Below are positions 4,680 through 22,184 of a DNA stretch of 22,628 bases, in pieces. The stretch is from a virus. Lineage: Duplodnaviria; Heunggongvirae; Uroviricota; Caudoviricetes. A model generated the notes under the pieces. The model was given only the letters and a program-made list of their open reading frames with translations. It searched no databases and was not told the origin of the DNA. Each line of letters opens with the position of its first letter. Position 1 is the first letter of the stretch. The stretch lies in the IMG/VR virus record IMGVR_UViG_2861043448_000001, one strand, 5' to 3'. The position numbers and the translations under genes are program-made.

Positions 4680-4743
4680 GGATATCCGGATTAGTGATTT
4701 CAGGTTGTATCGTGAGATCAGTGATGGAAAAAGTATTACGTAC

Positions 4744-4926
4744 ATGATCGCCGGGTTAAATAAAGAATATGGCGATGTGGTGGAATCCGGACTGCTTTTT
4801 GCAGATCCTGCCGTTGTAGATCGTGAAACTGACGAACTTATAGAAAAAGCAATTGCTTTCAAGCTTGCGTATCGACAGCAATACCAACAAAAAGCTGGAT
4901 GGAATTATGAGTCTTCTTTTTGCTGA
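4744..4926 (+). CDS. hypothetical small protein (first rightward ORF)
   Basis: ORF in the track from TTG at 4705; first ATG at 4744 (MIAGLNKEYGDV...). Overlaps the start of the replication gene by about 20 nt. Weak SD; could be a cro/cII-position gene or spurious. Confidence 0.3.
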   Translation: MIAGLNKEYGDVVESGLLFADPAVVDRETDELIEKAIAFKLAYRQQYQQKAGWNYESSFC

Positions 4927-5872: not shown

Positions 5873-5912
5873 GTGTTAATTTCTGGTCATGAGGTAATTT
5901 TCAGGAGGGCTT

Positions 5913-6335
5913 GTGGCAAAAGTTTTTACACAAGAAGAGCGGGAAAAAATTAAAGGGCAGGTTGTTGAACTCGTACGCCGGAGTGGGCGTGAGACGTTAC
6001 GGCAACTGGAAGTCAAGACAGGTGCGACAAGATATCTGATGAGCGTTCTCGCAAGAGAGCTGGTTGCCAGCGGCGATGTATACAACTCTGGTTACGGGTT
6101 ATTCCCGTTTGAACAGGCGCGTAAGGACTGGCAAAATGCCCGTAAAAAGCTCTCAAGGGCAAAGCTGAAGGAACCATCTGCGGTTGATCCGGACCTTATC
6201 TGGTCATTACCTGACGGAGAAATACGTCGTTACGACAGGCGTCATAATATGATTTGTACTGAGTGTCGTAAAAGCGAAGTTATGCAGCGCATATTGTCGT
6301 TTTATCAGGGGGATGTCCGGTATTTATTGAAGTGA
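5913..6335 (+). CDS. hypothetical protein (140 aa)
   Basis: GTG start 5 nt after a strong SD (CAGGAGGG); no recognisable domain from sequence alone. Confidence 0.6.
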   Translation: MAKVFTQEEREKIKGQVVELVRRSGRETLRQLEVKTGATRYLMSVLARELVASGDVYNSGYGLFPFEQARKDWQNARKKLSRAKLKEPSAVDPDLIWSLPDGEIRRYDRRHNMICTECRKSEVMQRILSFYQGDVRYLLK

Positions 6336-6403
6336 CGAGATTAAAGTGCATTAGTTCAGATGCAAATTGACATTTTGTGGCACAGGGTAGAGCTAGCGTG
6401 GTT

Positions 6404-6427
6404 GTCCGCTTTGTGCCAAGAGCGGAC
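6404..6427. repeat. 24-bp hairpin element, copy 1 (GTCCGCTTTGTGCCAAGAGCGGAC)
   Basis: Near-identical to the copy at 7619-7642; 9-bp stem, 6-nt loop; lies about 40 bp outside the 3' end of the GIY-YIG gene. Confidence 0.5.
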
Positions 6428-6464
6428 TTTGCAAAATGGGGGTTATTTCAATCAAAACGTAACG

Positions 6465-7409
6465 TCACAACCAGCCGACGCTCTCTCGCCATTTATAATT
6501 AGTAACTTTATCATTTTCGCTTATTTTTTTAGATATAGAGCGCGGCTCTCTTCCTAGATACTCAGATATTTCTATCGGGGACAAATCAAAATCAACAAGC
6601 ATGACTCTAAGTTTTTCCATTTCCTTTAAAGTCCAAGGCTTGCCATAATTTTCATAAAGAGATACCTTATGCTCCCTGATAGTTCGCTTTCTCTGAGTTT
6701 CACTTTCCCTCTGAAAAATCTCGCTTTTAAATTGTGAACGGAACTCTTTACAGAAGTTGTTATCAGTTTTTTTGTTATATAGATTGCTAAAAATAAGCTG
6801 GGATGCCGGGTCTAAATCAGGTGTGTTAATAATGAAAACTTTGACCTTTTCCATATAGGGATATTCAATTTTACCCAATATGCTTAATTGCTTTATATTA
6901 AAAAAACCTCTCAAATCAAAAGATTTAATGAGCTTTGATTGGATTACACTTTCAATCCTGCTTGCATTTAAATAACAGTACTTTGCCATTGGAAGGGCCC
7001 ATACTACCAGTTGAGGAATATATTTTTCTAATGCAATGCTCTGCCAATCAGTATCAAAGGTTTGGCTTTTTGCTAGCATGTTTTTCGGCAAATCAGAATA
7101 CATTGTGGTAGATGCCCATATCTTATAATCATTCGCCAAGGCTTGATAGTATTTTGTGTGGTTATGAATTTTATAAGCTGACATGAAGCGATAAACGTCT
7201 TCGTCGTGACCAGCGTCGTAAATTGTTCGATTTCCTCTAAGATAACCGTCGTAATGTTCGGTTATCCTTCTACCTACATTACAACTTACCCCAACGTAAA
7301 CCACACGACTGAAAAGTCCTTTATGGACAATAAGATAAACTCCGCTACAGCCAGATTTCCTGGCCTCTGATAGAGAACCTAAAAATCTCCATTCCATAAT
7401 TAAATCCAT
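6465..7409 (-). CDS. GIY-YIG nuclease-domain protein (314 aa) with uncharacterised C-terminal region
   Basis: N-terminus CSGVYLIVHKGLFSRVVYVGVSCNVGRRITEHY fits GIY-x(about 12)-YVG ... R ... E spacing of GIY-YIG nucleases. The gene is markedly AT-rich compared with flanking phage genes. Confidence 0.75.
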   Translation of the reverse strand: MDLIMEWRFLGSLSEARKSGCSGVYLIVHKGLFSRVVYVGVSCNVGRRITEHYDGYLRGNRTIYDAGHDEDVYRFMSAYKIHNHTKYYQALANDYKIWASTTMYSDLPKNMLAKSQTFDTDWQSIALEKYIPQLVVWALPMAKYCYLNASRIESVIQSKLIKSFDLRGFFNIKQLSILGKIEYPYMEKVKVFIINTPDLDPASQLIFSNLYNKKTDNNFCKEFRSQFKSEIFQRESETQRKRTIREHKVSLYENYGKPWTLKEMEKLRVMLVDFDLSPIEISEYLGREPRSISKKISENDKVTNYKWRESVGWL

Positions 7410-7579
7410 AATTATTGCTACTGTTTTTGTTTATCATTATTTTCGTGAAACTTCAACAATTTTATCCAAAAGCTAAGGGCAAAGACTTATATAATTATAC
7501 TTGTCATCGTTAGCGATTATATAGAGTAGTGGCGCTGACCTGCTCCCTGGTGATTCACACAGAATGCTGTTAGTAATGT

Positions 7580-7642
7580 CCGTTCCTCGCTCTCAGCGGA
7601 CCTTCAGCTCAGTGATATCGTCCGCTCTGTGCAAAGAGCGGA
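7580..7642. repeat. two tandem hairpin elements (GTCCGTTCCTCGCTCTCAGCGGAC and GTCCGCTCTGTGCAAAGAGCGGAC)
   Basis: Second unit is a perfect 9-bp stem with 6-nt loop and matches the copy at 6404-6427; located in the 547-bp spacer between the GIY-YIG gene and the 449-aa gene. A further CCGCTCT-containing imperfect dyad occurs near 7760-7790. Confidence 0.45.
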
Positions 7643-7956
7643 CGTTGGTATGCAAGAGCCCTCCAAAAGTTGATGGTTGGTTTGCAGGGGGGCTTAAAGA
7701 AACTGCACTTATCAAGTTGAAGTTCTGTATTCAGCGAAATCGTAGCACTCTGACGATAAGTAACTCCGGTACTCCGCTCTTCGATGAAGAACCAGAGTAA
7801 TCCCCCCGAAAAACCAGCGCATCAAAATTGGATCTTCAGCGGTAGCTTATCGGCTATCGGAAGTACAGGTGTGGATTCGTGGTGAATTGCTTTGATAATA
7901 AACGATTAATACGGAAAAACGCATTAATCATTTATTAGCTTTTAGTAAACCACAAT

Positions 7957-9306
7957 TTATTCCGTTTTACATATCATAGTAGTCGATTGGAGAATATAGT
8001 TTCTGGGAATGTACTCTTCAAAGTGTTCGTCCTTTTTAAATACATGAACTACATTTGGGAATAATTGATAGTCAACAGGGTGTATAGCGTTTGGATTATG
8101 GTACATGTACATGGCTGTACACCATGGTTCTTGATAGTTAGGGTCACTTACATCGGCTGAAAATGGATGTGGGGCTGCATCCTGATCAGTTTTAACACCA
8201 CTGACGTACACTTTGAATCCACTCGCCTCTACACCTGCAAGAATTCCCATCCGGTTAAACTTAGGTATGGTTGCTTGAGTAGTGAGTAAAACGGCAGAAA
8301 CATAATTATTTTGTTCTGAGCCAAAAAAGTTCGACTTGATACTTCTATTTTCATCTGTATGTCTTTCAATAGAAATGCCTGACTCAATATCAATCCCGTA
8401 CAAATAGCTATGCAAGGCTTCGCTTGAGAAGGCCATGGACATTCTTTTTGAATAATCCTGCATTGCTATGACAAATGGTTTGTTCTTTGTATGGTTGAGT
8501 TCCCAGTAATGAACTTTCTCTGGCTCAGGGCAATGCCGGACTTTTTTTAATAAACTTCTTGCAAACTTAAAAGGCATGACATTTAGAACATGTTTTCTTA
8601 ATTCATCCATCTGTTCATCGTTAATGACTTTTCTTTCAAGAGGGGCTTCTGCTTCAGCAATGCTTACAGCCTCTACAGCAATTTCCACTCCAAATTTAGA
8701 TAGCAGAAAATCTGGTTGATTGTATTCTCTATTCATTTCAAAGTCGAGTTCATAAAATACAGCGTTCAAATATAATTCAAATAACCTTGAATTAAATGCA
8801 TCACTTTGAAAATCCCTTATAAATATTCCATCAGGATCTTTGAACCAGTATGCAAGTTCCTCAAGAACAATATATGCAGGGAAATGAAGAGGGTCTTCGA
8901 GGAGCATTTTTATATAAACATTCCTTTTTTTCGCTGGGACCTTACTCAAGAATAATGAAAAAGGTTTGGTTGATTCATCGCCTTGCATGAATGTACCATT
9001 TTGGTGCTGCGCCAGCATCTTTGGTATGTCATCGTTCAAATTATTAAGCAAGACATCCATTGAATCAAATGAAGCCAAGACGTTTATTGCTCTGAATTTT
9101 TTATCTAAATCCCGACCTAAGACTATTGCGTTAAAATCTTTATCAATATTGCATATGATTATTGTGGATAACAATGTTATCCCATTCCCCTCATATTTAA
9201 ACCAGCGTATCTCCTCAGAAAATGTCTTAAGGTAAGGTGAGCGACCGTAAAAATAAATATCAAATTGTTCTTTGCTGATCTCACTGAAGTGTAATCCTGC
9301 GTTCAT
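7957..9306 (-). CDS. hypothetical protein (449 aa), no recognisable domain
   Basis: Long intact ORF with AAGGA SD 7-11 nt upstream of the ATG; AT-rich; same strand as the adjacent GIY-YIG gene. Confidence 0.7.
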   Translation of the reverse strand: MNAGLHFSEISKEQFDIYFYGRSPYLKTFSEEIRWFKYEGNGITLLSTIIICNIDKDFNAIVLGRDLDKKFRAINVLASFDSMDVLLNNLNDDIPKMLAQHQNGTFMQGDESTKPFSLFLSKVPAKKRNVYIKMLLEDPLHFPAYIVLEELAYWFKDPDGIFIRDFQSDAFNSRLFELYLNAVFYELDFEMNREYNQPDFLLSKFGVEIAVEAVSIAEAEAPLERKVINDEQMDELRKHVLNVMPFKFARSLLKKVRHCPEPEKVHYWELNHTKNKPFVIAMQDYSKRMSMAFSSEALHSYLYGIDIESGISIERHTDENRSIKSNFFGSEQNNYVSAVLLTTQATIPKFNRMGILAGVEASGFKVYVSGVKTDQDAAPHPFSADVSDPNYQEPWCTAMYMYHNPNAIHPVDYQLFPNVVHVFKKDEHFEEYIPRNYILQSTTMICKTE

Positions 9307-9428
9307 ACCAATTCCTTTTCAATGAATAATTGGCCTTTAGGAGTGATTCCCTTTGTCTTTAATTCAGTTCTAACTAGTTCTTTAATCCAATAGCCTAAGC
9401 TCATCATGCAGTTGGATCATAAGACAAC

Positions 9429-9457
9429 GCCCTATAGTGCTCGTGATACTATAGGGC
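9429..9457. promoter_or_regulatory. perfect 10-bp inverted repeat with 9-bp spacer (GCCCTATAGT-gctcgtgat-ACTATAGGGC)
   Basis: Seen directly in the divergent region between the 449-aa gene and the recombinase gene; geometry resembles an operator or recombinase core site. Confidence 0.35.
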
Positions 9458-9590
9458 ATCTGACCACACTGTTAACTGGAGTAACGACTATGGCAGGAAT
9501 ACAGCATAACCAAACTCACCCCAAACTTACATAGCGCTTTCTGGCCGTGAGCATAACAAGGTCCACTCCTCGCTCATAAGGGACAACCAT

Positions 9591-9623
9591 ACTCAAATCT
9601 CCCACATTGCAGGAGATTTGAGT
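9591..9623 (+). promoter_or_regulatory. perfect 12-bp stem-loop sequestering the recombinase ribosome-binding site
   Basis: ACTCAAATCTCC-cacattgca-GGAGATTTGAGT; the AGGAG SD (9611-9615) lies in the loop/3' arm junction and the ATG (9624) follows immediately. Confidence 0.45.
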
Positions 9624-10226
9624 ATGAACACGTCACCGTGGAACAAAGACCGTATCATAGGCCAAAAAAGACCACTTCAGATATCTCATATCTGGGGTAT
9701 CCGAATCCGACTTGAACTGGAAGGTAAAACTCGCGATTTAGCTCTGTTCAACATGGCCCTGGATAGTAAGCTTCGAGGCTGTGATCTGGTCAAACTCAAA
9801 GTATCTGATGTTGCATATGGTGGCTCTGTTTCAAGCAGAGCAACGGTGTTGCAACAGAAAACCGGTAGCCCTGTTCAATTTGAGATAACCAAAGGGACAA
9901 GAGAAGCTGTTGCTGCATTGATACAGCTTAGCAATTTGCACAGTAAAGACTTCTTGTTTCGGTCTAGGGTCGGAACTAACCAGCACATTTCAACCCGGCA
10001 ATACAACCGAATCTTTCATGGGGGGGTAGAAAAGCTTGGTCTCGAAGATTCGCTTTACAGCACACATTCCATGAGAAGAACAAAACCTTACCTGATCTAC
10101 AAGAAAACCAAGAATCTCCGGGTGATCCAACTTCTGTTGGGTCATAAGAAACTGGAAAGCACAGTCCGTTATCTGGGCATTGAAGTCGATGATGCGTTAG
10201 AGATTTCTGAATCGATTGAAGTCTAA
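9624..10226 (+). CDS. small tyrosine recombinase, catalytic domain only (FimB/FimE-sized, 200 aa)
   Basis: Catalytic signature ...LRGCD (Arg-I) ... HSMRRT ... LLGH ... TVRYL (Tyr nucleophile). No N-terminal arm-binding domain. The track ORF begins at TTG 9618; ATG 9624 with AGGAG 8 nt upstream is preferred. Confidence 0.8.
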   Translation: MNTSPWNKDRIIGQKRPLQISHIWGIRIRLELEGKTRDLALFNMALDSKLRGCDLVKLKVSDVAYGGSVSSRATVLQQKTGSPVQFEITKGTREAVAALIQLSNLHSKDFLFRSRVGTNQHISTRQYNRIFHGGVEKLGLEDSLYSTHSMRRTKPYLIYKKTKNLRVIQLLLGHKKLESTVRYLGIEVDDALEISESIEV

Positions 10227-10585
10227 GGTTGTCAGGGCTGCAACAGCAGCCCTGTGCCATAAGCGGAAGTATTTAACAACTATCAGTGTTGTTCAACAGA
10301 TAAAGGGGCACTTGATTTTTTCTGTTCTCAGGAAATGATAAAAGCGCGTCGGTTCAAGCCTGCTTAACGGGAGTTTGTTAATCCTGTTGCCGTGACGTTT
10401 TGACACCATTATGATGGGGAGACACTTAATGTATGAAGGTTCCGCCACTTATACCTGTCCAACAACTGCCTCGGATGTTTCTTTGTATGAATAAGTGGTA
10501 ATGAGTAGTGAATCGCTAACAGTCACCCGAACAATCGGTGCCTGCAATTAATTCTATATTCTAAACGAGGGGGAGATTATTACAC

Positions 10586-11566
10586 ATGAAATTTAAGGAC
10601 AAGAACCTTAAGGCTCTCGCGGAATGTATCATAGGAGATAATAAGGCATTTCTGTATCGTTCAAGCAGTCACATCACTGAATTTTTCCAGGACTGCGGCA
10701 TGGATGTTACTCATGACGGATCCACTCGGTGGAAATGGACGGCCCAGAGGCTTGAAGAACTTCTTTATGAGCCACAGTCAAAGCCACATACTTTGCCGGA
10801 AAGGTTTGTTCATGTGCTCAGAACTTTAATGTTAAAAGAAGATGCAATGGATGACGATCCAGGAAGATTAAAGGCGCTTGAAGAACTGAACAAGCCTTTG
10901 ATGCGGGAAGGCTATGAGGCATTCTATGGTGACGATCGCCTTTTGTATATACGCCATACCGATACCAAAACGGTTTCAGTCAGTAATAACCCTCATCGGC
11001 CCTTAACGCCTCACGAAGTAGAATGCAGAAGGTTACTGACCGCGTTTCTTGATACCTGCTCAGAAGATGAGTTAATAGAAGATATTCTCCTTCCTTTATT
11101 CCGGCAACTTGGTTTTCACCGGATAACAGCAGTGGGACATAAAGATAAAGCGCTGGAATACGGGAAAGACATCTGGATGAAGTTCACACTGCCAACTCAG
11201 CATGTTCTTTATTTCGGCATTCAGGCAAAAAAAGGTAAGTTGGATGCGTCCGGTGCCAGCAAATCTACGAATTCAAACGTGGCAGAAATCTTCAACCAGG
11301 TACTGATGATGCTTGGCCATGAAATATTTGACCCAGAAACAAATAGAAAGGTGCTGGTAGATCATGCCTTTATCGTTGCTGGCGGAGAAATTACTAAACA
11401 GGCGAGGAACTGGCTGGGCGGGAAACTTGATGCCAGCAAAAGAAGCCAGATAATATTTATGGACCGGGAAGACATTCTTAATTTATATACTGTAAGTAAT
11501 GTACCTCTGCCAACAGGTGCTCTCATCTCTGATGATGCCGTTAAGAACGATGATATTCCTTTCTAA
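10586..11566 (+). CDS. protein with C-terminal Mrr-like PD-(D/E)xK nuclease motif and unknown N-terminal domain (326 aa)
   Basis: Strong SD (GAGGGGGAG). C-terminal half ...HRITAVGHKDKALEYGKDIWMKF...LYFGIQAKKG... resembles the Mrr catalytic core (D ... Q-x-K). Confidence 0.7.
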   Translation: MKFKDKNLKALAECIIGDNKAFLYRSSSHITEFFQDCGMDVTHDGSTRWKWTAQRLEELLYEPQSKPHTLPERFVHVLRTLMLKEDAMDDDPGRLKALEELNKPLMREGYEAFYGDDRLLYIRHTDTKTVSVSNNPHRPLTPHEVECRRLLTAFLDTCSEDELIEDILLPLFRQLGFHRITAVGHKDKALEYGKDIWMKFTLPTQHVLYFGIQAKKGKLDASGASKSTNSNVAEIFNQVLMMLGHEIFDPETNRKVLVDHAFIVAGGEITKQARNWLGGKLDASKRSQIIFMDREDILNLYTVSNVPLPTGALISDDAVKNDDIPF

Positions 11567-11993
11567 TCAGAAGTACGTCTTTTTCTGAAAGAATACGTGA
11601 TAGGTAGCCACACCACACCTTTAGTGACCCCTTAATCTGGTAATATAACAGCCCGTATGAATGTCCGCGGCATCGCGGGCTGAAATTTATTAAAAATACT
11701 TATTCATCAAGCTGGAGTAGTTTGCCGAGTAACTGTAAACGCCCAACTTAACCGGACCATTCACTTTTAGATTGCTACCAGCAAACCAACTTCCGTTTCT
11801 CGCTCAAAGCGGACTAGAAGGTTAGCTTGCGTCGGACTTGGCGTATTTAAAGAAGTGCTGGTGGTAACTGGTTGTTGTGTTCCATTTCTACAAAACAAAA
11901 TCACAGAAACTATACCCAATAGTTATATTGAATCAATGATGAGACAGCCTCATATTTATCAGAACTGGTGTACGTCCAATACAGGAGGTTGTC

Positions 11994-12083
11994 GTGCTGG
12001 TTCTCAAATATGCGCTAGCTATTGCGGCTGTAATGGCAATTTATTGTCTTGCTATTGTTCTTACGGATCGCCTTTCTGATTGA
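11994..12083 (+). CDS. putative small hydrophobic peptide (29 codons, GTG start)
   Basis: AGGAGG SD 6 nt upstream of GTG; translation VLVLKYALAIAAVMAIYCLAIVLTDRLSD is one predicted TM helix with a short polar tail, like type I toxins. Lies just upstream of the hok promoter region. Confidence 0.25.
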   Translation: MLVLKYALAIAAVMAIYCLAIVLTDRLSD

Positions 12084-12237
12084 TTTTATATTGGCGAGGT
12101 GACGGGAGTTAAGTAGAATTGCTGCGGGTGCTTGAGGCTATCTGCCTCAGGCATGAACACCAAAGGCAGATAGAGAAAAGCCCCAGTTAACATTACGCGT
12201 CCTGCAAGACGTTTAACATTAATCTGAGGCTCAATCT

Positions 12238-12450
12238 ATGAACGGCAAATCTAGGTTAGCCTCTTACGTGCCGAAAGGCAAGGAGAAGCAGGCTATGAAG
12301 CAGCAAAAGGCGATGTTAATCGCCCTGATCGTCATCTGTTTAACCGTCATAATGACGGCACTGGTAACGAGGAAAGACCTCTGCGAGGTACGAATCCGAA
12401 CCGGCCAGACGGAGGTCGCTGTCTTCACAGCTTACGAACCTGAGGAGTAA
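12238..12450 (+). CDS. hok: Hok/Gef family type I toxin with in-frame Mok leader (hok proper = 12295..12450)
   Basis: MKQQKAMLIALIVICLTVIMTALVTRKDLCEVRIRTGQTEVAVFTAYEPEE is a near-match to Hok/Gef toxins; in-frame upstream extension from ATG 12238 as in chromosomal mok; candidate promoter TTGGCG-17-TAGAAT about 12097-12125. Confidence 0.85.
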   Translation: MNGKSRLASYVPKGKEKQAMKQQKAMLIALIVICLTVIMTALVTRKDLCEVRIRTGQTEVAVFTAYEPEE

Positions 12451-12517
12451 GAGACCAGGCGGGGGAGAATCCCTCGCCACCTCTGATGTGTCAGGCATCC
12501 TCAACGCACCCGCACTT

Positions 12518-12546
12518 AACCCGCTTCGGCGGGTTTTTGTTTTTAT
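12518..12546 (+). terminator. intrinsic terminator after hok
   Basis: AACCCGC-ttcg-GCGGGTT hairpin followed by a T-run (TTTTTGTTTTTATTTT). Confidence 0.6.
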
Positions 12547-12665
12547 TTTCAACGCGTTTGAAGTTCTGGACGGTGCCGGAATAGAATCAAAAATACTTAA
12601 GTAGCGCGCAGGGATAAGAGGGATGGTCCCTTAAAGGGGAGAGCTAATTATCCGGAAGGATTCTG

Positions 12666-12917
12666 ATGATGAACATCGAAGAACTGCGTAAAATTTTTTG
12701 TGAAGATGGCCTCTATGCTGTGTGCGTTGAAAATGGAAATCTTGTTAGTCATTACCGCATTATGTGTTTGCGAAAGAATGGGGCTGCGTTAATTAATTTT
12801 GTGGATGGTCGAGTGACAGACGGATTTATCTTGCGCGAAGGTGAGTTTGTCACTTCATTACAGGCACTGAAAGAGATTGGAATAAAAGCAGGCTTTTCAG
12901 CTTTTGCAGAAGAATAA
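12666..12917 (+). CDS. small nin-region protein (83 aa), Rem-like by size and position
   Basis: GGAAGGA SD before ATGATG; same size and position relative to hok and the HNH-motif protein as the K-12 Qin rem gene as I recall it; the protein sequence itself is not something I can verify. Confidence 0.55.
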   Translation: MMNIEELRKIFCEDGLYAVCVENGNLVSHYRIMCLRKNGAALINFVDGRVTDGFILREGEFVTSLQALKEIGIKAGFSAFAEE

Positions 12918-12983
12918 ACTCATCTACAATCTTGCGCGGGGCTGAACTCCCGCTGAGTAACACCGTGCCACCGGAGAAAACCG

Positions 12984-13262
12984 ATGGCACGCAACGTAAA
13001 ATATTACAATTCTGATAATTCGCCCGTTCTTGCCTGCACGCACGAGCGGTATTCTCACGCATTCAAGTCTGAATGGTTCCAGCACCCTCCATGCACTGAA
13101 GAGCAGGCTGAATGGATAATTCAGTGTTACCGCAGGCGCGGATACGAGGTTAAGAAAGCTCTTAGTCTCGACTACCGTCACTGGATAATCTCAGTCAGAT
13201 TGCCTTACTCCGAACGCCCACCGCGTCCGTCCCGTACATTCCAGCAACGCATCTGGAGGTAA
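12984..13262 (+). CDS. hypothetical protein (92 aa)
   Basis: GGAGAAAA SD; stop lies 2 nt before the GTG start of the next gene (operon-like packing). Confidence 0.5.
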   Translation: MARNVKYYNSDNSPVLACTHERYSHAFKSEWFQHPPCTEEQAEWIIQCYRRRGYEVKKALSLDYRHWIISVRLPYSERPPRPSRTFQQRIWR

Positions 13263-13263
13263 C

Positions 13264-14313
13264 GTGCGGGTATTACTTCGACCTGTTCTGGTACCGGAAC
13301 TCGGGCTGGTGGTCGTTAAGCCGGGCCGTGAATCCATGCCGGTATTCCACAATACCCGGGTACTGGTGGAGCCGGAACCGAAAAGCATGCGTAATCTGCC
13401 GTCCGGGGTCGTTCCTGCCGTTCGCCAGCCGCTGGTGGAAGACAAAACATTGCTGCCGTTTTTCAGTAACGCACGGGTAATTCGTGCTGCTGGTGGTGCT
13501 GGTGCATTGTCTGACTGGCTGTTGCGCCATATTAAATCCTGCCAGTGGCCACACGGCGATTATCATCACAGCGAAACCGTCATTCACCGTTATGGTACCG
13601 GCGCAATGGTGTTGTGCTGGCACTGCGACAACCAGCTGCGTGACCAGACATCCGAATCACTCGAGCAACTTGCTCATCAAAACCTGTCAGCATGGATGAT
13701 TGACGTCATCGGTCACGCAATAAGCGGTACGCAGGAGCGTGAATTATCTTTGGCTGAATTATCCTGGTGGGCGGTCCGCAATCAGGTGGCGGACGCGCTA
13801 CCGGAAGCGGTATTACGTGGTTCGCTGGGGTTGCGTGCGGAAAAAATCCGCTCAATGTACCGTGAAAGCGACATCGTACCGGGAGAGCAGACCGCCAACA
13901 GCATACTGAAACAGCGCACAAAAAATCTTGCGCCGCTGCCTCACGCCCACCAGCAACAGAACCCACCACAGGAAAAGACGGTGGTCAGCATTGCCGTTGA
14001 TCCTGAGTCTCCGGAATCTTTCATGAAACGACCTAAACGTCGCCGCTGGGTTAACGAGAAATACACACGCTGGGTGAAGACACAGCCGTGTGCGTGTTGT
14101 GGTAAGCCAGCCGACGATCCCCATCACCTGATTGGTCATGGTCAGGGCGGAATGGGGACAAAATCTCACGATATTTTCACGCTACCGCTGTGTCGGGAGC
14201 ATCACAACGAGCTTCATGCGGATCCTCTGGCGTTCGAAGAAAAGCATGGTTCTCAGGTTGATTTAATTTTTCGTTTTCTTGATCACGCCTTTGCAACTGG
14301 CGTGCTTGGGTAA
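13264..14313 (+). CDS. nin-region protein with C-terminal HNH-like Cys/His motif (349 aa, YdfU-like)
   Basis: GTG start with GGAGG SD 5 nt upstream; C-terminus CACCGK...HHLIGHGQGG...CREHHNELH resembles HNH nuclease motifs; size matches K-12 YdfU as recalled. Confidence 0.7.
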   Translation: MRVLLRPVLVPELGLVVVKPGRESMPVFHNTRVLVEPEPKSMRNLPSGVVPAVRQPLVEDKTLLPFFSNARVIRAAGGAGALSDWLLRHIKSCQWPHGDYHHSETVIHRYGTGAMVLCWHCDNQLRDQTSESLEQLAHQNLSAWMIDVIGHAISGTQERELSLAELSWWAVRNQVADALPEAVLRGSLGLRAEKIRSMYRESDIVPGEQTANSILKQRTKNLAPLPHAHQQQNPPQEKTVVSIAVDPESPESFMKRPKRRRWVNEKYTRWVKTQPCACCGKPADDPHHLIGHGQGGMGTKSHDIFTLPLCREHHNELHADPLAFEEKHGSQVDLIFRFLDHAFATGVLG

Positions 14314-14325
14314 AAGAGGTGACTG

Positions 14326-14700
14326 ATGCTCATAGATTTGGTTTTACCTTACCCGCCGACGGTGAACACTTACTGGCGACGCCGTGGCAGCACATATTTT
14401 ATCTCGGAGGAGGGAAAGCGTTATCGCCGGGCTGTGGCGCTTATTGTTCGCCAGCAGCGGCTGAAATTAAGCCTGTCCGGAAGGCTGGCGATAAAGGTGA
14501 TTGCAGAGCCACCGGATAAGCGTCGTCGCGACCTGGACAATATCCTGAAAGCACCGCTGGATGCGCTGACGCATGCGGGAGTGTTAATGGACGATGAGCA
14601 GTTTGATGAAATCAATATCGTTCGTGGTCAGCCAGTATCTGGTGGACGTCTGGGGGTGAAGATTTACCCCATAATGCATGAAGAGCAGGTCAAAAAATGA
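14326..14700 (+). CDS. rusA: RusA-type Holliday junction resolvase
   Basis: 124-aa ORF with conserved ...PDKRRRDLDNILKAPLDALTHAGVLMDDEQ...GGRL... motif of RusA. Confidence 0.85.
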   Translation: MLIDLVLPYPPTVNTYWRRRGSTYFISEEGKRYRRAVALIVRQQRLKLSLSGRLAIKVIAEPPDKRRRDLDNILKAPLDALTHAGVLMDDEQFDEINIVRGQPVSGGRLGVKIYPIMHEEQVKK

Positions 14701-15518
14701 AACTGGAAGATTTACCGAAATACTACTCCCCAAAATCCCCTGGCCTGACCGATGCATCGGCCTCAACGTCAAAAGATGCGCTGAGTATCACTGATGTGAT
14801 GGCCGCGCAGGGCATGACACAGAATCGGGCTGAGATGGGTTTTTCTGCGTTCCTGGGGAAAATGGGCATCAGTATGAATGACAGGGCGCGGGCAACAGAA
14901 TTACTGGCAGATTATGCACTCAGTCGGTGCGATCGTGTGGCGGCGTTGAGAAAGCTTCCGGCAGAAATAAAACCGGTAGTGATGCGCATTATGGCTTCGT
15001 ACGCTTTTGAGGATTATGCCCGCAGCGCAGCGAGTAAAAAGCAGTGCCCTTGTTGCTATGGGGAAAAATTTATTGAAAGCGTAGTTTTTACAAACAAGGT
15101 CCAGTATCCGGATGGTAAGCCGCCGGTATGGGCAAAGTGTACGAAAGGTGTGTATCCGTCTTACTGGGAAGAATGGAAAAAAGTCAGGGAGGTGGTAAAA
15201 GTTGCCTGTCCGGAGTGTGGCGGAAAGGGTGAGGTTTCCACCGCCTGTAAGGATTGCCGTGGGCGTGGTGTCGCCATTCATCGTGAAGAGTCGGTAAAAC
15301 GTGGTATGCCTGTTATCAGAGACTGCCAGCGTTGTGGTGGTCGTGGCTATGAAAGACTACCATCAACGGAGGCATTTAATGCTATATGCGAGGTGACAAA
15401 CCAGATAACACGCGCGTCATGGGAAAAAACAGTTAAGAAATTCTATGATGCGCTGGTGACCCGGTTTGATATTGAAGAAGCATGGGCTGAGCGGCAGTTA
15501 AAAAAGGTAACTAGGTAA
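14697..15518 (+). CDS. late-gene antiterminator Q (called by position; Cys-rich zinc-binding motifs)
   Basis: Start overlaps the rusA stop (ATGA); immediately upstream of a PR'-like promoter and tR'-like terminator; contains CPCC and three CxxCGG(K/R)G repeats. Confidence 0.65.
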   Translation: MKLEDLPKYYSPKSPGLTDASASTSKDALSITDVMAAQGMTQNRAEMGFSAFLGKMGISMNDRARATELLADYALSRCDRVAALRKLPAEIKPVVMRIMASYAFEDYARSAASKKQCPCCYGEKFIESVVFTNKVQYPDGKPPVWAKCTKGVYPSYWEEWKKVREVVKVACPECGGKGEVSTACKDCRGRGVAIHREESVKRGMPVIRDCQRCGGRGYERLPSTEAFNAICEVTNQITRASWEKTVKKFYDALVTRFDIEEAWAERQLKKVTR

Positions 15519-15523
15519 CAAGG

Positions 15524-15551
15524 TTGATTTTTCCGGAATCTGTGGTAAATT
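15524..15551 (+). promoter_or_regulatory. late promoter PR'-like (-35 TTGATT, 16-bp spacer, extended -10 TGgTAAATT)
   Basis: Hexamers read directly; the -10 TAAATT is identical to lambda PR' as recalled; positioned right after Q. Confidence 0.55.
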
Positions 15552-15598
15552 CGTCATAACGATGGGCGTTTTATGCCTGACGTTAGAAGAGTTTCTAC

Positions 15599-15625
15599 AA
15601 CCCGCCGCCGAGCGGGTTTTTTATT
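15599..15625 (+). terminator. tR'-like intrinsic terminator
   Basis: CCCGC-cgccga-GCGGG hairpin followed by TTTTTTATT, about 50 nt downstream of the predicted PR' start. Confidence 0.55.
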
Positions 15626-15661
15626 GCGGAATTAATTATGGACCGTTATTATTCTGCTCCC

Positions 15662-15737
15662 GGCCCTTTAGCTCAGTGGTGAGAGCGAGCGACTCATAAT
15701 CGACAGGTCGCTGGGTCAAATCCAGCAAGGGCCACCA
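15662..15737 (+). tRNA. tRNA with CAU anticodon (Ile2/Met type, ileX-like)
   Basis: Cloverleaf read by eye: acceptor GGCCCTT/AAGGGCC, anticodon loop CUCAUAA, T-arm GCUGG-GUCAAAU-CCAGC, 3' ACCA. Close to E. coli ileX as recalled. Confidence 0.85.
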
Positions 15738-15738
15738 A

Positions 15739-15815
15739 CCGTCACCAGTTCATCAGGAAAGAGCGTCAACCCTTTAAGTTGAGTGTGCGAGGTTCGAGTC
15801 CCCGGTGGCGGTCCA
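15739..15815 (+). tRNA. atypical tRNA-like gene (anticodon loop CCUUUAA; identity uncertain, possibly degenerate)
   Basis: 77 nt with acceptor, D, anticodon and T arms, but C at positions 8 and 33 and an A-C mismatch in the T-stem. Confidence 0.4.
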
Positions 15816-15817
15816 GT

Positions 15818-15893
<76 letters not shown>

Positions 15894-15896
15894 TAT

Positions 15897-15971
<75 letters not shown>

Positions 15972-16178
15972 GTTAGAGTCTTTCAGTCTGCGATGATGGG
16001 AAATCCCGGAGTGACTGAAAGACGTTTAAGTTATGAATGATCGCTTTTTTTTGCAAAATTGCTGTGCAGAAATACTAACCTTCGGGCAGGCGATCATTCA
16101 TAAGCACTCTGCTTTTATTCCGATTAACTGTGGGTGGTTTGTTGGATAGAGTGCTTTCCTTACTGTATATATTGTTTC

Positions 16179-16203
16179 GCCCGCTTTTGCGGGCTTTTCT
16201 TTT
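16179..16203 (+). terminator. intrinsic terminator upstream of the holin start
   Basis: GCCCGC-tttt-GCGGGC followed by TTTTCTTTT. Confidence 0.55.
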
Positions 16204-16263
16204 CAAATCCCTTTCATTTCTCAGTGTAAAACTACGCCATCCGTTATTTGCGGAGGTGAGGCT

Positions 16264-18426
16264 ATGAAATCCATGGACAAAATTTCAACGGGCATTGCCT
16301 ATGGCACCTCCGCAGGCAGTGCTGGCTACTGGTTTTTACAGCTGCTCGATAAAGTCACGCCCTCACAGTGGGCAGCAATAGGTGTGCTGGGTATCCGCAC
16401 CGGCGGGCGCGTGCTGGCGGTAAACAGCCAGACCCGGACGCTGACGCTCGACCGTGAAATCACGCTGCCATCTTCCGGCACCACGCTGATAAGCCTGGTT
16501 GACGGGCAGGGGAGTCCGGTCAGCGTGGAGGTTCAGTCCGTCACCGACGGCGTGAAGGTGAAAGTGAGCCGTGTTCCTGACGGCGTTGCTGAATACAGCG
16601 TATGGGGGCTGAAGCTGCCGACGCTGCGCCAGCGCCTGTTCCGCTGCGTGAGTATCCGTGAGAACGACGACGGCACGTATGCCATCACCGCCGTGCAGCA
16701 TGTACCGGAAAAAGAGGCCATCGTGGATAACGGGGCGCACTTTGACGGCGACCAGAGCGGCACGGTAAATGGTGTCACGCCGCCAGCGGTGCAGCACCTG
16801 ACCGCAGAAGTCACCGCAGACAGCGGGGAATACCAGGTGCTGGCCCGCTGGGACACGCCGAAGGTGGTGAAGGGCGTGAGCTTCCTGCTTCGCCTGACCG
16901 TGGCAGCGGATGACGGCCGTGAGCGGCTGGTCAGCACGGCCCGGACGACGGAAACCACTTACCGCTTCACACAACTGGCTCTGGGGAACTACAGGCTGAC
17001 AGTCCGGGCAGTAAATGCGCGGGGGCAGCAGGGCGATCCGGCGTCGGTATCGTTCCGGATTGCCGCACCGGCAGCGCCGTCGCGGATTGAGCTGACGCCG
17101 GGCTATTTTCAGATAACCGCCACGCCGCATCTTGCGGTTTATGACCCGACGGTACAGTTTGAGTTCTGGTTCTCGGAAAAACGGATTGCGGATATCAGGC
17201 AGGTTGAAACCAGCGCGCGTTATCTTGGTACGGCACTGTACTGGATAGCCGCCAGTATCAATATCAAACCGGGCCATGATTATTATTTTTACGTTCGCAG
17301 TGTGAACACCGTTGGCAAATCGGCATTCGTGGAGGCTGTCGGTCAGCCGAGTGATGATGCATCAGGCTATCTGGATTTTTTCAAAGGCGAGATAGGGAAA
17401 ACCCATCTGGCTCAGGAGCTGTGGACGCAGATTGATAACGGTCAGCTTGCGCCTGACCTGACTGAAATCAGGACGTCCATAACGGATGTCAGCAATGAAA
17501 TAACACAGACCGTCAATAAGAAACTGGAAGACCAGAGTGCAGCGATCCAGCAGATACAGAAGGTTCAGGTTGATACAAATAATAACCTGAACAGCATGTG
17601 GGCAGTGAAGCTGCAGCAGATGCAGGACGGACGCCTTTATATTGCGGGTATCGGTGCCGGTATTGAGAACACCCCTGACGGCATGCAGAGTCAGGTGCTG
17701 CTGGCAGCAGACAGGATTGCGATGATTAATCCTGCGAATGGCAACACAAAGCCGATGTTTGTTGGTCAGGGCGATCAGATATTCATGAATGAAGTGTTCC
17801 TGAAACGCCTGACGGCCCCCACCATTACCAGCGGCGGTAATCCTCCGGCATTTTCCCTGACATCAGACGGGAGACTGACGGCGAAAAATGCGGATATCAG
17901 TGGCAGTGTGAATGCGAACTCAGGAACGCTCAACAATGTCACGATTAACCAGAACTGTACGATTAAGGGCATGCTGGAGGCGACCCAGGTCAGAGGAGAT
18001 TTCGTTAAAGCTGTATCAAAAGCCTTCCCGAAAAAAGTCGGTACGTGGGGTAACACGGAAACACCAAACGGTACGGTTACAGTAACCATCAGCGATGATC
18101 ATAACTTTGACCGCCAGATTATTATTCCGCCCATTATTTTTAACGGTATAGCGTATGACGATCCGGGGAGCGGAAATAACCCAGGAGGCACGCGATACAC
18201 GGGTTATGGTTTTGAAGTTCGCAAAAACGGCGTATTAATCGCATCCAGAGAAACTAAAGGGGCCATTCCCGGTAGTTACAGTGCAGTTATTGATATGCCG
18301 AGTGGCAGGGGAAGCGTCACTCTGGAGTTTAAGATTTTCCAGAAAGGCAATCAGGGGGCAGGCAATATCACCGACTGTACGGTGATTGTGACCAAAAAAG
18401 CGGCTTCCGGCATCAGTATTCGTTGA
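16264..18426 (+). CDS. chimeric ORF: class II (phage 21 S-type) holin N-terminus (43 aa) fused in frame to the C-terminal about 677 aa of tail tip host-specificity protein J
   Basis: Residues 1-43 ([26 protein letters not shown]...AAIGVLG) match the phage 21 pinholin N-terminus as recalled; from residue 44 ([20 protein letters not shown]...) to the end the protein is collinear with lambda J from about residue 455. Strong SD (GGAGGTGAGG). Junction at about nt 16392/16393. Confidence 0.8.
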
Positions 18427-18448
18427 AATATTTATAACCCCAATAAAG

Positions 18449-18475
18449 GGCGTCAGGAATGACGCCTTTTTTATT
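18449..18475 (+). terminator. intrinsic terminator after the J fragment
   Basis: GGCGTCA-ggaa-TGACGCC followed by TTTTTTATT. Confidence 0.6.
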
Positions 18476-18496
18476 GCAGAAAAGCGAGAGGTAATT

Positions 18497-18892
18497 ATGC
18501 GTAAAGTTTGTGCAGCAATTTTGTCCGCAGCCATTTGTCTGGCCGTATCCGGTGCGCCTGCATGGGCGTCTGAACATCAGTCCACGCTGAGCGCGGGGTA
18601 TCTTCATGCCCGGACCAACGTTCCCGGCAGTGATGATCTGAACGGGATTAACGTGAAATATCGTTATGAGTTTACGGATACGCTGGGGCTGGTGACGTCA
18701 TTCAGCTATGCAGGAGACAAGAATCGCCAGCTGACCCGTTACAGCGATACCCGCTGGCATGAAGATTCCGTGCGTAACCGCTGGTTCAGCGTGATGGCGG
18801 GGCCGTCTGTGCGCGTGAATGAATGGTTCAGCGCGTATGCGATGGTACTGGTGGAAGAACTATCGAGCAAGCACGTGCGAACTTGCGGGTAA
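18497..18892 (+). pseudogene. lom: truncated lom (Lom/Ail outer-membrane protein, N-terminal about 115 aa)
   Basis: Signal peptide plus ...GINVKYRYEFTD...RWFSVMAGPSVRVNEWFSAYAM... matches lambda Lom; similarity ends at about nt 18845 and the frame runs into unrelated sequence before a stop. Confidence 0.7.
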
Positions 18893-20655
18893 TGTATGAG
18901 CAAAAAGCTGGCCTTGCTAATACTGACCTAAACACCCTTACCGGTGAATATTCTGGTTTCTATCAACAACCAACGAGCGCTTACGCAACAGAAGAGTTAA
19001 ATTACCCAATCGGTCTGGCGGGCGCTTTAATAGTGCTCCAAACGAGAGCCAACACTGCTTCTTCCTGCGTTCAGGTGTACCACCCTTATAATAATCCGGG
19101 AATTACTTATAGACGAATATATGAAGGAGGTAGCGGTACCTGGTCTGAATGGAAGAGAGATGTATCAACAGAAAGGGTTGAAGAGGGAAAAGAAACAACT
19201 TACGTATATTCTACGTATTCTTCAGGCGCACCACGCTTACAGGTTTCCAAATCTGGTTTGTGGGGTTGTCATAATGGCACTGGCTGGTTGCCATTAGCTG
19301 TTGGGCAAGGAGGTACAGGTGCGACAACAGTAGAAGATGCGCGAAACAACTTAAGTCTTGGCGAAAGTAGCGCAGTTAAATTTAAAAACCTTACTTTAAC
19401 CGAAGCGCTCGACACGACATTAGGACTGCTTACAAAAACAGGACGAGACTGGAACACGCAGCATACTGATAACATTAATAAATTTATACCAATTGCAGGC
19501 AGTACAAACGGCCCGGCAGGCTCTATGGTTCTTGGCGGCATTCATGTTCAATTTAGTAAAAATTATGCTGTGCAGTTCGGAGGCCGCAATTCCGGTTTTT
19601 GGGGAAGAACAATTGAAAATGGAACGACACAGGAATGGAAGAAATTACTAACAGTAGACGATCTCAATTCATCTACCGATCTTGCTGTCAGGTCATTAAC
19701 CACATCTAACCCGGTAAAATCTGGCGGAGGGCGAATTGATGTCCTTGGAAGCACGTCAGACTATAGCAAAATGGATTGCTTTGTACGTGGGTTTGATAGC
19801 ACCGGTAATTCTCTCGTGTGGGCGTTGGGTTCATCAGTCGGCGTAAGTAAGATGCTATCGCTAAAAAATTTCTTTAGCGGAGCTGAGATACTGTTAAATG
19901 GTAATGACGGCGCGGTTCAACTCAAAACAGGTGCTGTTAACGGGGCTACAGCGCAGACGCTCACTATCAACAAGAATGAGGTTAACTCAACCGTTGATTT
20001 AACCCTTACAAAGCAATCAGGGACTGGTAATCGTTTTGTTTTACAGAACTCAGGTAATGCAGAACTACCGTTTTCTGTCAGGGTGTGGGGTTCCAGTACT
20101 CGACAAAACGTTTTTGAGGTTGGAACGTCTGCTGCGTATCTGTTTTATGCGCAAAAAACGTCAGCAGGCCAGTTGTTTGATGTAAATGGCGCTATTAATT
20201 GCACAACGCTGAATCAGTCATCAGACCGCGACCTTAAAGACGATATTCTCGTTATCAGCGACGCGACGAAAGCAATCCGTAAAATGAACGGATACACCTA
20301 CACGCTCAAGGAAAACGGGATGCCTTATGCTGGCGTTATTGCACAGGAAGTAATGGAGGCGATACCAGAAGCTGTGGGATCGTTTACTCATTATGGTGAA
20401 GAGTTGCAAGGTCCGACCGTTGACGGCAACGAGCTACGCGAAGAAACTCGCTATCTTAATGTTGACTACTCCGCCGTGACGGGTTTACTTGTTCAGGTCG
20501 CCCGTGAAACAGATGATCGCGTTACCGCGCTGGAAGAGGAAAACACAACGCTACGTCAAAATCTGGCAACAGCAGGCACCCGGATCAGCACTCTGGAAAA
20601 TCAGGTAAGCGAACTGGTTGCACTTGTCCGGCAGTTAACAGGAAGCGAACATTGA
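18823..20655 (+). CDS. tail fibre protein (probably 5'-truncated) with C-terminal intramolecular chaperone (peptidase S74-like) domain
   Basis: Tail-fibre motif GQGGTGATTVEDARNNLSLG; C-terminal SDRDLKDDILVIS...NGYTYTLKENG...DYSAVTGLLVQVARE resembles autoproteolytic chaperone domains of tailspikes. The N-terminus starts inside lom in another frame; ATG 18892 is an alternative internal start. Confidence 0.7.
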   Translation: MVQRVCDGTGGRTIEQARANLRVMYEQKAGLANTDLNTLTGEYSGFYQQPTSAYATEELNYPIGLAGALIVLQTRANTASSCVQVYHPYNNPGITYRRIYEGGSGTWSEWKRDVSTERVEEGKETTYVYSTYSSGAPRLQVSKSGLWGCHNGTGWLPLAVGQGGTGATTVEDARNNLSLGESSAVKFKNLTLTEALDTTLGLLTKTGRDWNTQHTDNINKFIPIAGSTNGPAGSMVLGGIHVQFSKNYAVQFGGRNSGFWGRTIENGTTQEWKKLLTVDDLNSSTDLAVRSLTTSNPVKSGGGRIDVLGSTSDYSKMDCFVRGFDSTGNSLVWALGSSVGVSKMLSLKNFFSGAEILLNGNDGAVQLKTGAVNGATAQTLTINKNEVNSTVDLTLTKQSGTGNRFVLQNSGNAELPFSVRVWGSSTRQNVFEVGTSAAYLFYAQKTSAGQLFDVNGAINCTTLNQSSDRDLKDDILVISDATKAIRKMNGYTYTLKENGMPYAGVIAQEVMEAIPEAVGSFTHYGEELQGPTVDGNELREETRYLNVDYSAVTGLLVQVARETDDRVTALEEENTTLRQNLATAGTRISTLENQVSELVALVRQLTGSEH

Positions 20656-20838: not shown

Positions 20839-20881
20839 CGTAATGATTACCTAAATACGTTATTCTGGTAATGACTCCAAC

Positions 20882-21385
20882 TTACTGATAGTGTTTTATG
20901 TTCAGATAATGCCCGATGACCTTGTCATGCAGCTCCACCGATTTTGAGAACGACAGTGACTTCCGTCCCAGCCTTGCCAGATGTTGTCTCAGATTCAGGT
21001 TATGCCGCTCAATTCGCTGAGTGTAACGCTTGCTGATTACGTGCAGCTTTCCCTTCAGGCGGGATTCATACAGCGGCCAGCCATCCGTCATCCATACCAC
21101 GACCTCAAAGGCCGACAGCAGGCTTAGAAGACGCTCCAGTGTGGCCAGAGTGCGTTCACCGAATACGTGCGCAACAACCGTCTTCCGGAGCCTGTCATAC
21201 GCGTAAAACAGCCAGCGCTGGCGCGATTTAGCCCCGACGTATCCCCACTGTTCGTCCATTTCCGCGCAGACGATGACGTCACTGCCCGGCTGTATGCGCG
21301 AGGTTACCGACTGCGGCCTGAGTTTTTTAAATGGCGGAAAATCGTGTTGAGGCCAACGCCCATAATGCGGGCGGTTGCCCGGCAT
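20882..21385 (-). CDS. insB: IS1 transposase InsB (expressed as InsAB' by frameshift)
   Basis: 167-aa ORF overlapping insA in the -1 frame; sequence matches IS1 InsB. Confidence 0.9.
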
Positions 21386-21579
21386 CCAACGCCATTCATG
21401 GCCATATCAATGATTTTCTGGTGCGTACCGGGTTGAGAAGCGGTGTAAGTGAACTGCAGTTGCCATGTTTTACGGCAGTGAGAGCAGAGATAGCGCTGAT
21501 GTCCGGCGGTGCTTTTGCCGTTACGCACCACCCCGTCAGTAGCTGAACAGGAGGGACAGCTGATAGAAACAGAAGCCAC
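21304..21579 (-). CDS. insA: IS1 protein InsA
   Basis: 91-aa [46 protein letters not shown]... matches IS1 InsA. Confidence 0.9.
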
Positions 21580-22184
21580 TGGAGCACCTCAAAAACACCA
21601 TCATACACTAAATCAGTAAGTTGGCAGCATCACCGTTATTCTTTTGTTCAAAAAGTGATTTTGCTATAGGTAGGGAGTATGTTCTTGGATTAAGAATAAA
21701 AATCGCCATGAAAGAGCTTCATGGCGAGTACATAAACGTACAAAATATGATGAAAGTAGAGTGGCGTAAGCCACTATATTAAGATATGACAATAGCGAAG
21801 AAAAGTAAATAACATTTTATGGGCGTTTAATTGTTAATTATAAAAACTAGAGTGCCCGATATTGTTTATCTTGCTTTAAAATAATGTACTCAAACCAAAT
21901 TTTTGAGCTAAAAGCTCAAATAATATAAATGCAATGATAATGTTTAATAAGACAATTAGCTTGCTTTGTATTTTCATTTCGGAATACTGTTAAGTAACTT
22001 TGATGACACTAACAATAGATCGGAATTTTCTTAGAGTCAATGGTCACTGTTTTTGCTTGCAAAGCAAATGTTTTTGGTGGTTATAAGTTTTCTTAATATA
22101 GTCACCTATGCAACTTGTTCCGTGTGGAGATTAAAGGTTAAAATTTAATGCGAAGATGGAATTATAATATATTTTTTTATAATT

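Follow-up and report, generated by a model that had tools for sequence, protein, structure and literature searches.

In the pinholin S21 of phage 21, TMD1 and TMD2 are connected by the loop LDQVSPSQ, and TMD2 has been reported to be necessary and sufficient for pore formation (bioRxiv 10.1101/2021.04.20.440580). TMD1 has a regulatory role and flips out of the membrane (bioRxiv 10.1101/2021.04.20.440580; PMC9636201), and a dual-start motif gives rise to antiholin and holin forms (PMC9636201). The tail tip protein J of phage lambda is the second reference point of this study. Truncated J genes are present in other defective prophages of Escherichia coli: a "phage tail tip domain-containing protein" fragment is found in a B-strain derivative, and a pair annotated as "J-related protein" and "terminase small subunit" lies at a similar chromosomal coordinate in strain LR-58-1. 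Internal deletions ending in J therefore recur. Judged from the match table, these other remnants differ from the gene described here in their breakpoints and in their partners. At the rspB/ydfJ site, E. coli K-12 and its relatives carry the cryptic prophage Qin, a lambdoid prophage disabled by internal deletions.

The window, that is the whole stretch of 22,628 nucleotides analyzed here, matches a segment of the E. coli UK_Dog_Liverpool chromosome at 99.99% identity. It contains a lambdoid prophage located at the same site as Qin, with rspB on the left and a truncated ydfJ on the right, and with an integrase gene at its left end that is supported by Pfam matches. This prophage and the Qin-type prophages share dicB, ydfD, hokD/sok, rem, a ydfU-like DUF968 gene, Q, and an ess-type holin, and both have been disabled by internal deletions. 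In contrast to its Qin relatives, the window prophage has lineage-specific breakpoints: codon 43 of the holin gene is joined to codon 488 of J, and dicA and dicC are also deleted. The holin-J junction very probably results from a microhomology deletion of ~18–21 kb that happened to leave an in-frame pseudogene fusion.

A Holin Start Fused in Frame to the C-Terminal Part of J

An uninterrupted ORF encoding 720 aa extends from 16264 to 18426 on the plus strand, exactly as the original prediction had described it. It consists of holin codons 1–43 followed in frame by J codons 488–1165 (table 1). Pfam splits the product cleanly, with a holin profile at the N-terminus and four J-specific domains after it.

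Table 1. Features of the Late Control Region, of the Fused Gene, and of the Neighboring Gene Remnants
Feature	Position	Strand	Evidence
Q, intact late-gene antiterminator, 273 aa	14697..15518	+	PF03589 Antiterm, E 6e-55; PGAP "antitermination protein" WP_000762889.1
pR'-like late promoter	15524..15563	+	Aligned to the lambda stretch between Q and orf-64
tR'-like intrinsic terminator, 7-bp stem and T run	15599..15628	+	Terminator scan
tRNA cluster: tRNA(CAT), Thr(TGT), Gly(TCC)	15662..15971	+	ARAGORN, Rfam, PGAP
Second terminator-like hairpin, GCCCGCTTTTGCGGGC and T run	16179..16204	+	Terminator scan; about 60 bp upstream of the holin start
Shine-Dalgarno GGAGG, native to the holin	16252..16256	+	Read from the sequence; 7 nt before the ATG
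Holin fragment, codons 1–43, phage-21-type class II	16264..16393	+	PF04971; sibling prophage DNA 99.94% identical to exactly 16393
Deletion junction, 4-bp microhomology GGTA (6/7 over GGTAnCC)	16390..16393	+	Three-way alignment of the window, intact holin, and intact J
J fragment, codons 488–1165 of a lambda-type tail tip protein	16390..18426	+	phiSTEC1575-Stx2k J, Pfam, PDB 8iyk
Sole nonsynonymous change relative to intact J, TGG to CGG, Trp to Arg, chimera residue 253	17020	+	Alignments
lom fragment, N-terminal 116 codons, ending at the second scar	18497..18845	+	PF06316 positions 1–119/199; PGAP partial pseudogene
Tail-fibre C-terminal fragment, S74 peptidase chaperone domain	18844..20655	+	PF13884; PGAP "missing N-terminus"

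Residues 5–43 match positions 1–39 of the 64 positions of the profile PF04971, "Bacteriophage P21 holin S" (E 1.4e-17), and the family score of this part reaches 63.9 bits for a cutoff of 26. By BLASTP, the 71-aa holin of phage vB_EcoS-689R5 agrees with the chimera at 40 of the first 43 residues. All 43 occur unchanged in two intact essD holins, that of phage mEp460_ev081 and that of a sibling prophage in strain IPCEC31. This profile match and these identities bear out the initial reading of the 43 codons as those of a pinholin of the phage 21 type.

The likeness to S21 extends to the Met1/Met4 dual start (MKSM, in MKSMDK), to TMD1, and to the connecting loop, here LDKVTPSQ. The sequence of the S21 loop was used to set the TMD boundaries in the chimera (bioRxiv 10.1101/2021.04.20.440580). 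TMD2 is reduced to eight residues, WAAIGVLG, followed by IRTGGR. The protein thus has one of the two TMDs of a class II holin and, unlike S21, neither a full TMD2 nor the charged C-terminal tail. In the intact holin, TMD1 is the weakly hydrophobic, releasable domain and TMD2 the strongly hydrophobic, pore-forming helix. Their Kyte-Doolittle maxima in a 19-residue scan are about 0.7 and 1.72, respectively, and the maximum of the chimera is 1.0. The membrane-targeting TM segment attributed to the chimera by the original prediction thus subsists as TMD1, but as a weak and releasable segment behind which TMD2 is cut short. A further difference from phage 21 is that no SAR endolysin or spanin gene follows the chimera: neither the ORFs nor the PGAP features of the window include a lysozyme or Rz gene, whereas the sibling prophage and phages have such genes behind their intact holin. 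Pinholin function is predicted to be lost, because only TMD1 and eight residues of TMD2 have been kept.

The rest of the protein derives from J. Residues 43–720 are identical at 677 of 678 positions (99.9%) to residues 488–1165 of J of phage phiSTEC1575-Stx2k (BLASTP), whose complete genome has been deposited, and they are collinear with residues 488–1131 of lambda J (PDB 8iyk), receptor-binding domain included, with 70% identity. The retained share, 57–58% of J and C-terminal, agrees with the "about 60 percent" first estimated. At the nucleotide level, the fragment and phiSTEC1575-Stx2k J are identical at 2,032 of 2,037 positions. Four of the five differences from this closest intact J are synonymous; the fifth replaces by Arg a Trp that is present in both lambda J and phiSTEC1575 J.

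The J domains kept in the chimera are Ig_J (residues 165–269), Ig_J_second (271–373), Phage_Tail_Tip (427–555), and the receptor-binding Ig_GpJ_C (584–719), with Pfam matches to PF24421, PF24489, PF09327, and PF12421 (E 2e-25). The fragment therefore includes two Ig-like domains, the central fibre, and the C-terminal receptor-binding domain, and it matches residues 487–836 of chain J in the lambda tail-tip structure 8iyk. In the intact protein, Pfam places FNIII-A_GpJ at 86–207 and Phage-tail_3 at 330–498, both before the break. These N-terminal domains build the tail-tip hub. PF24801 and PF13550 are lost from the chimera, except for the last ~10 residues of PF13550. Compared with lambda J, the chimera thus lacks the N-terminal 487 residues, and it also has no tail partners left: the genes for tail assembly (tape measure, M, L, K, and I), which lie upstream of J in the strain 582 prophage and in phiSTEC1575, are absent from the window.

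The Two Parts Meet at a 4-bp Microhomology

The junction was mapped by ungapped alignment of the window to intact holin genes, from phages mEp460_ev081 and Turner and from the IPCEC31 prophage, and to intact J genes, from phiSTEC1575-Stx2k and lambda. Holin-derived sequence ends at 16393 and J-derived sequence begins at 16390. At this point, the holin gene reads CTGGGTAgCCtg and the J gene reads GCCGGTAtCCgc, and the four nucleotides GGTA belong to both. The breakpoint predicted at about 16392 falls within this motif, and the search for microhomology that had been recommended was thus successful. Gly43 (GGT, 16390–16392) is common to both parents and is in codon phase 0 in both; chance alone would keep the frame in one of every three deletions.

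In undeleted relatives, both parental sequences are continuous across GGTA, and the same holin DNA runs on into a normal 71-aa holin gene, followed by ydfR and lysozyme genes. A join of this kind is the mark that illegitimate deletion at a microhomology leaves. None of the 50,697 records of the phage collection spans the junction: the holin matches stop between 16391 and 16396, and the J matches start between 16385 and 16390. The chimera offers a clean, base-precise example of prophage decay by microhomology deletion.

Undeleted Relatives and Extent of the Loss

The sibling prophage of strain IPCEC31 occupies the same chromosomal site and encodes the same integrase, excisionase, RusA, and Q proteins as the window prophage. 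It is 99.94% identical to positions 4680–16393 of the window, and the identity stops exactly at the end of GGTA. Past this position, the sibling carries the intact 71-aa essD holin gene, ydfR, the rrrQ lysozyme gene, and the large terminase gene. It has undergone a different deletion of its own, extending from terminase to lom, and retains terminase, the C-terminus of lom, the tail fibre, and tfaQ. As these remaining late genes are in the lambda order, a contiguous late operon once lay behind this holin.

A full-length prophage is present at the same site in strain 582, where J is located 20.9 kb downstream of the holin gene. The order of genes is essD, ydfR, rrrQ, rzpQ, a cold-shock gene and other accessory genes, nohA, terminase, portal, protease, and capsid, followed by the tail genes, J, lom, the tail fibre, and tfaQ. 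Both the sibling and the strain 582 prophage have therefore kept the lysis cassette, unlike the window prophage. Positions 16390–18845 of the window are 99.35–99.43% identical to the J-lom region of the strain 582 prophage and of phiSTEC1575-Stx2k, starting from exactly codon 488 of J. Measured between equivalent points, the interval absent from the window is 20,866 bp long in the strain 582 prophage; in phage vB_EcoS-569R4, its length is 18,244 bp. The two arms of the window prophage are unequally related to that of strain 582: the left arm (Q, tRNAs) is only 85–94% identical and the J-lom region 99.35%. The core of the original prediction, a deletion scar joining the start of a holin gene in frame to the interior of J, agrees with the parental and sibling sequences. 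The same sequences document the loss of the genes it had listed as missing, namely the remainder of the lysis cassette, the terminase and head genes, and most of the tail genes.

Further Decay of the Prophage

Neither the 41 ORFs of at least 80 aa nor the PGAP features of the window include endolysin, spanin, terminase, portal, capsid, or tail tube genes. The view that the prophage can neither lyse its host by the canonical route nor make virions thus holds, the genes needed being absent from the window. The ydfD "lysis protein" gene and dicB are still present in the prophage.

A second scar, between lom and the tail fibre, is located at about 18845 and is out of frame. Homology to every lom gene of the phage collection stops at 18845, and the DNA to the right of this scar has no megablast match in that collection. 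An IS1 is inserted at 20867–21634. Compared with the sibling, the window prophage also has a 2.28-kb deletion that has removed ydfA, dicA, dicC, and part of a ydaT-like gene. For the prophages described in enteroaggregative E. coli 042, the publication gives no matching coordinates (PMC2808357), and a link to them was rejected.

Control Region Upstream of the Fusion

The control region has a native appearance. The Q protein, WP_000762889.1, is the same as in the sibling prophage. The putative pR'-like promoter located downstream of its gene combines a −35 element TTGATT (15524–15529), a spacing of 16 nt, and an extended −10 element TGGTAAATT (15543–15551), and it is followed by the pause-like element AACGAT (15558–15563). 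This region aligns with lambda at TTGA(C/T)T, GGTAAATT, and AACGATGGG; the aligned lambda stretch, between Q and orf-64, is the pR' core with its pause element. The promoter was absent from the results of a generic sigma-70 scan and was found only by the alignment to lambda.

Two terminator-like hairpins, at 15599–15618 and 16179–16194 without their T runs, lie between this promoter and the ORF, and transcription into the ORF would therefore require a Q-modified polymerase. The second of them is conserved in intact phages with this holin region. Similarly, the tRNA cluster that lies between the hairpins precedes the intact holin gene in phage vB_EcoS-689R5; its tRNA(CAT) is called Met by ARAGORN and Ile by PGAP. 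Since Q, the pR'-like promoter, and the native Shine-Dalgarno sequence are intact, expression of the chimera from the late promoter is structurally possible, although probably low. Owing to the 2.28-kb deletion of ydfA, dicA, and dicC, the usual early-to-Q transcription route is gone.

Distribution and Annotation

The identical junction was found in 110 of 5,426 complete E. coli genomes from many laboratories and is therefore not an assembly artefact. The best 60 of these 110 carriers are 100% identical over 2,211 bp, and in all but one of these 60 copies the reading frame runs through without stop codons or frameshifts. The exception among them is strain RL465, in which the chimera is split by an IS2. 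As the best 60 copies are identical, they give no power to test selection, and the open frame is uninformative in this respect; it may simply mean that the clone is young. Several carrier strains probably belong to the ST410 high-risk clone, which is successful and multidrug-resistant. For the carrier lineage, the junction constitutes a convenient clonal marker. Carrier genomes also hold several other J and holin homologues, with two to five matching places per record.

The scar itself is an ordinary outcome of prophage decay and is already annotated, RefSeq/PGAP treating both halves as partial pseudogenes. PGAP calls them as two abutting genes, "phage holin, missing C-terminus" and [quoted passage not shown] The exact 720-aa protein is found on 490 public contigs, where it is named either "host specificity protein J" or "hypothetical protein." After one deletion in three, a long chimeric ORF remains, and gene callers may report such an ORF as a real protein.

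Origin of the Fusion and Alternative Readings

We propose the following origin for the chimera. The ancestral late operon would have comprised Q, pR'/tR', the tRNAs, the holin gene, ydfR, and the lysozyme, spanin, terminase, and head genes, followed by the tail genes, J, lom, the tail fibre, and tfa. An illegitimate deletion of about 18–21 kb would then have brought codon 43 of the holin gene together with codon 488 of J at the GGTA common to both genes. The codon phase being 0 at both breakpoints by chance, the frame of J would have stayed open behind the holin start, giving the 720-aa ORF. What remains would be a non-functional scar in a lambdoid prophage inserted between rspB and ydfJ, the Qin site. 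The sequences of the two parents, the exact breakpoint with its microhomology, and the clonal spread of the junction are directly observed, as are the absence of all lysis and morphogenesis genes and the loss of TMD2 from the holin and of the hub domains from J.

The original prediction had invoked a single deletion. The deletion is borne out; that it was a single one is the most parsimonious reading, as nested successive deletions would give the same junction. We infer on this ground of parsimony that one event, rather than several, made it. A junction formed in more than one step, either by nested deletions, which leave just the last junction, or by illegitimate recombination between two lambdoid prophages in one cell, seems unlikely to us. 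Such a history would suit a mosaic prophage whose left arm is 85–94% and whose J-lom region is 99.35% identical to the strain 582 prophage, and the carrier genomes hold additional J and holin homologues (two to five places per record). However, the sibling, which has the same left arm, keeps terminase, the C-terminus of lom, the tail fibre, and tfaQ in the lambda order, and a single deletion remains the shortest path to the junction. We give hardly any credence to the proposals that the 43 N-terminal residues are native to a variant of J or that the junction was created during assembly. Nothing was found in their favor; the first is the outcome that the original prediction had said would refute it, and it was not borne out. 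All relatives of J have 487 further N-terminal codons, no phage record carries the 43 residues in front of J, and no record spanning the junction exists among the 50,697 of the phage collection. The identical junction was recovered in 110 independently finished genomes. The genomes, the phage collection, the intact J genes, and the sibling prophage together led us to reject both proposals.

A different question is whether the chimera has become an expressed, co-opted protein. Under the control of Q, it would be directed by TMD1 to the inner membrane. There it could titrate 21-type pinholins as a dominant antiholin, TMD1 and its Lys2 anchor acting against the pinholins of 21-type phages that reside in the same cell or superinfect it, or it could present the J receptor-binding region in the envelope and affect superinfection. 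In either version, infections by related lambdoid phages would end differently in the presence of the chimera. The ORF is open behind a native Shine-Dalgarno sequence and the Met1/Met4 dual start, Q and the pR'-like promoter are intact, the C-terminal receptor-binding domain is complete, and the exact protein recurs on 490 public contigs, all of which is compatible with co-option, as is the role of TMD1 as the regulatory domain of S21 (bioRxiv 10.1101/2021.04.20.440580). We nevertheless regard co-option as very improbable. An IS2 interrupts the ORF in the carrier strain RL465, and the Trp-to-Arg change affects a residue kept in both intact J proteins compared. Two terminator-like hairpins stand between pR' and the ORF, the immunity/early region that normally drives Q is deleted, and no PADLOC defence model matches the chimera. 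Moreover, the in-frame join is a one-in-three chance, next to a scar that is out of frame, and the best 60 of the 110 copies are clonal, so that their persistence needs no selection.

The pseudogene calls of PGAP, the IS2 insertion in RL465, and the Trp-to-Arg change are signs of a dispensable ORF. The insertion, the amino-acid change, the out-of-frame neighboring scar, and the identity of the copies fit a neutral scar. We infer that the product of the chimera, if made at all, has no function, and the significance of the scar is small beyond bookkeeping. In experiments, lambda acquired DNA from three defective prophages, Rac, Qin, and DLP12 (PMC3945230). The retained 2-kb fragment of J, with its receptor-binding domain, could in the same way act as a homology reservoir for infecting lambdoid phages.

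Further Deletions in the Window and in Related Prophages

Besides the holin/J junction, the window carries a second deletion scar, at which lom keeps its N-terminal 116 codons, ending at 18845, and directly adjoins, out of frame, a C-terminal tail fibre fragment carrying an S74-peptidase chaperone domain. An internal ATG at 18823 opens a 610-aa ORF at this scar. To the right of 18845, the window DNA had no match in the phage collection by megablast.

Relative to the sibling prophage of Escherichia coli IPCEC31, located at the same chromosomal site, 2.28 kb are absent at window positions 4680-4684. With this segment went a ydfB fragment, ydfA, dicA, dicC, and the 5' part of a ydaT-like gene, and the clean microhomology at the join is limited to 2 bp (TA). 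The genes dicB and ydfD are still present; DicF was not found by Rfam in the window.

The IPCEC31 sibling (L009 20290-30761) has itself decayed, by a route unlike that of the window. It retains the holin, lysozyme, and terminase genes, and its deletion fused the C-terminal part of lom to the region just 3' of the large terminase gene. A stretch of 98 bp of lom (window 18748-18845) is common to the fragments that the two lineages have kept. Truncated J remnants are also listed for two other genomes: one in the B-strain derivative T7Express and, in LR-58-1, a J-related fragment beside a terminase small subunit gene at a similar chromosomal coordinate. The LR-58-1 arrangement may mark a further deletion, of independent origin, with an endpoint within J.

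Insertion Sequences, Cargo Genes, and RNAs

The IS1 copy is bordered by a direct repeat of 8-9 bp, (C)GTTATTCT. As this copy is missing both from the otherwise identical locus of strain UK_Dog_Liverpool and from IPCEC31, the IS1 insertion is private to the strain from which the window derives. In one carrier genome, that of strain RL465, the chimeric holin-J ORF is split by an IS2 element whose flanks are otherwise 100% identical.

Features of the window and of the RL465 locus (L011)
Feature	Position	Evidence
Cargo island within prophage	6465-11566	
sok antitoxin RNA	12126-12300	Rfam RF01794, 111.7 bits
Fourth tRNA call, Lys-TTT, between tRNA(CAT) and tRNA-Thr	15739-15815	ARAGORN
IS2 element in J part of chimera (RL465)	L011 2536-3866 (= window ~17259-17265)	
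Second deletion scar, lom/tail fibre	18497-20655	
IS1 copy	20867-21634	InsA/InsB Pfam hits

Within the cargo island, a 449-aa protein encoded on the minus strand (7957-9306) is a hit to PD-T7-1, an anti-phage defence model of PADLOC (E 7e-157). Its neighbours are a 202-aa integrase fragment and proteins of 314 and 326 aa, the last two having neither a Pfam nor a PADLOC match.

The sok RNA adjoins a hokD gene annotated by PGAP, and the pair makes up a type I toxin-antitoxin module of the hok/sok kind, which Qin has too. The Lys-TTT tRNA call, reported by neither Rfam at the gathering threshold nor PGAP, is likely to be either spurious or a degenerate copy. The tRNA with a CAT anticodon is assigned to Ile by PGAP and to Met by ARAGORN.
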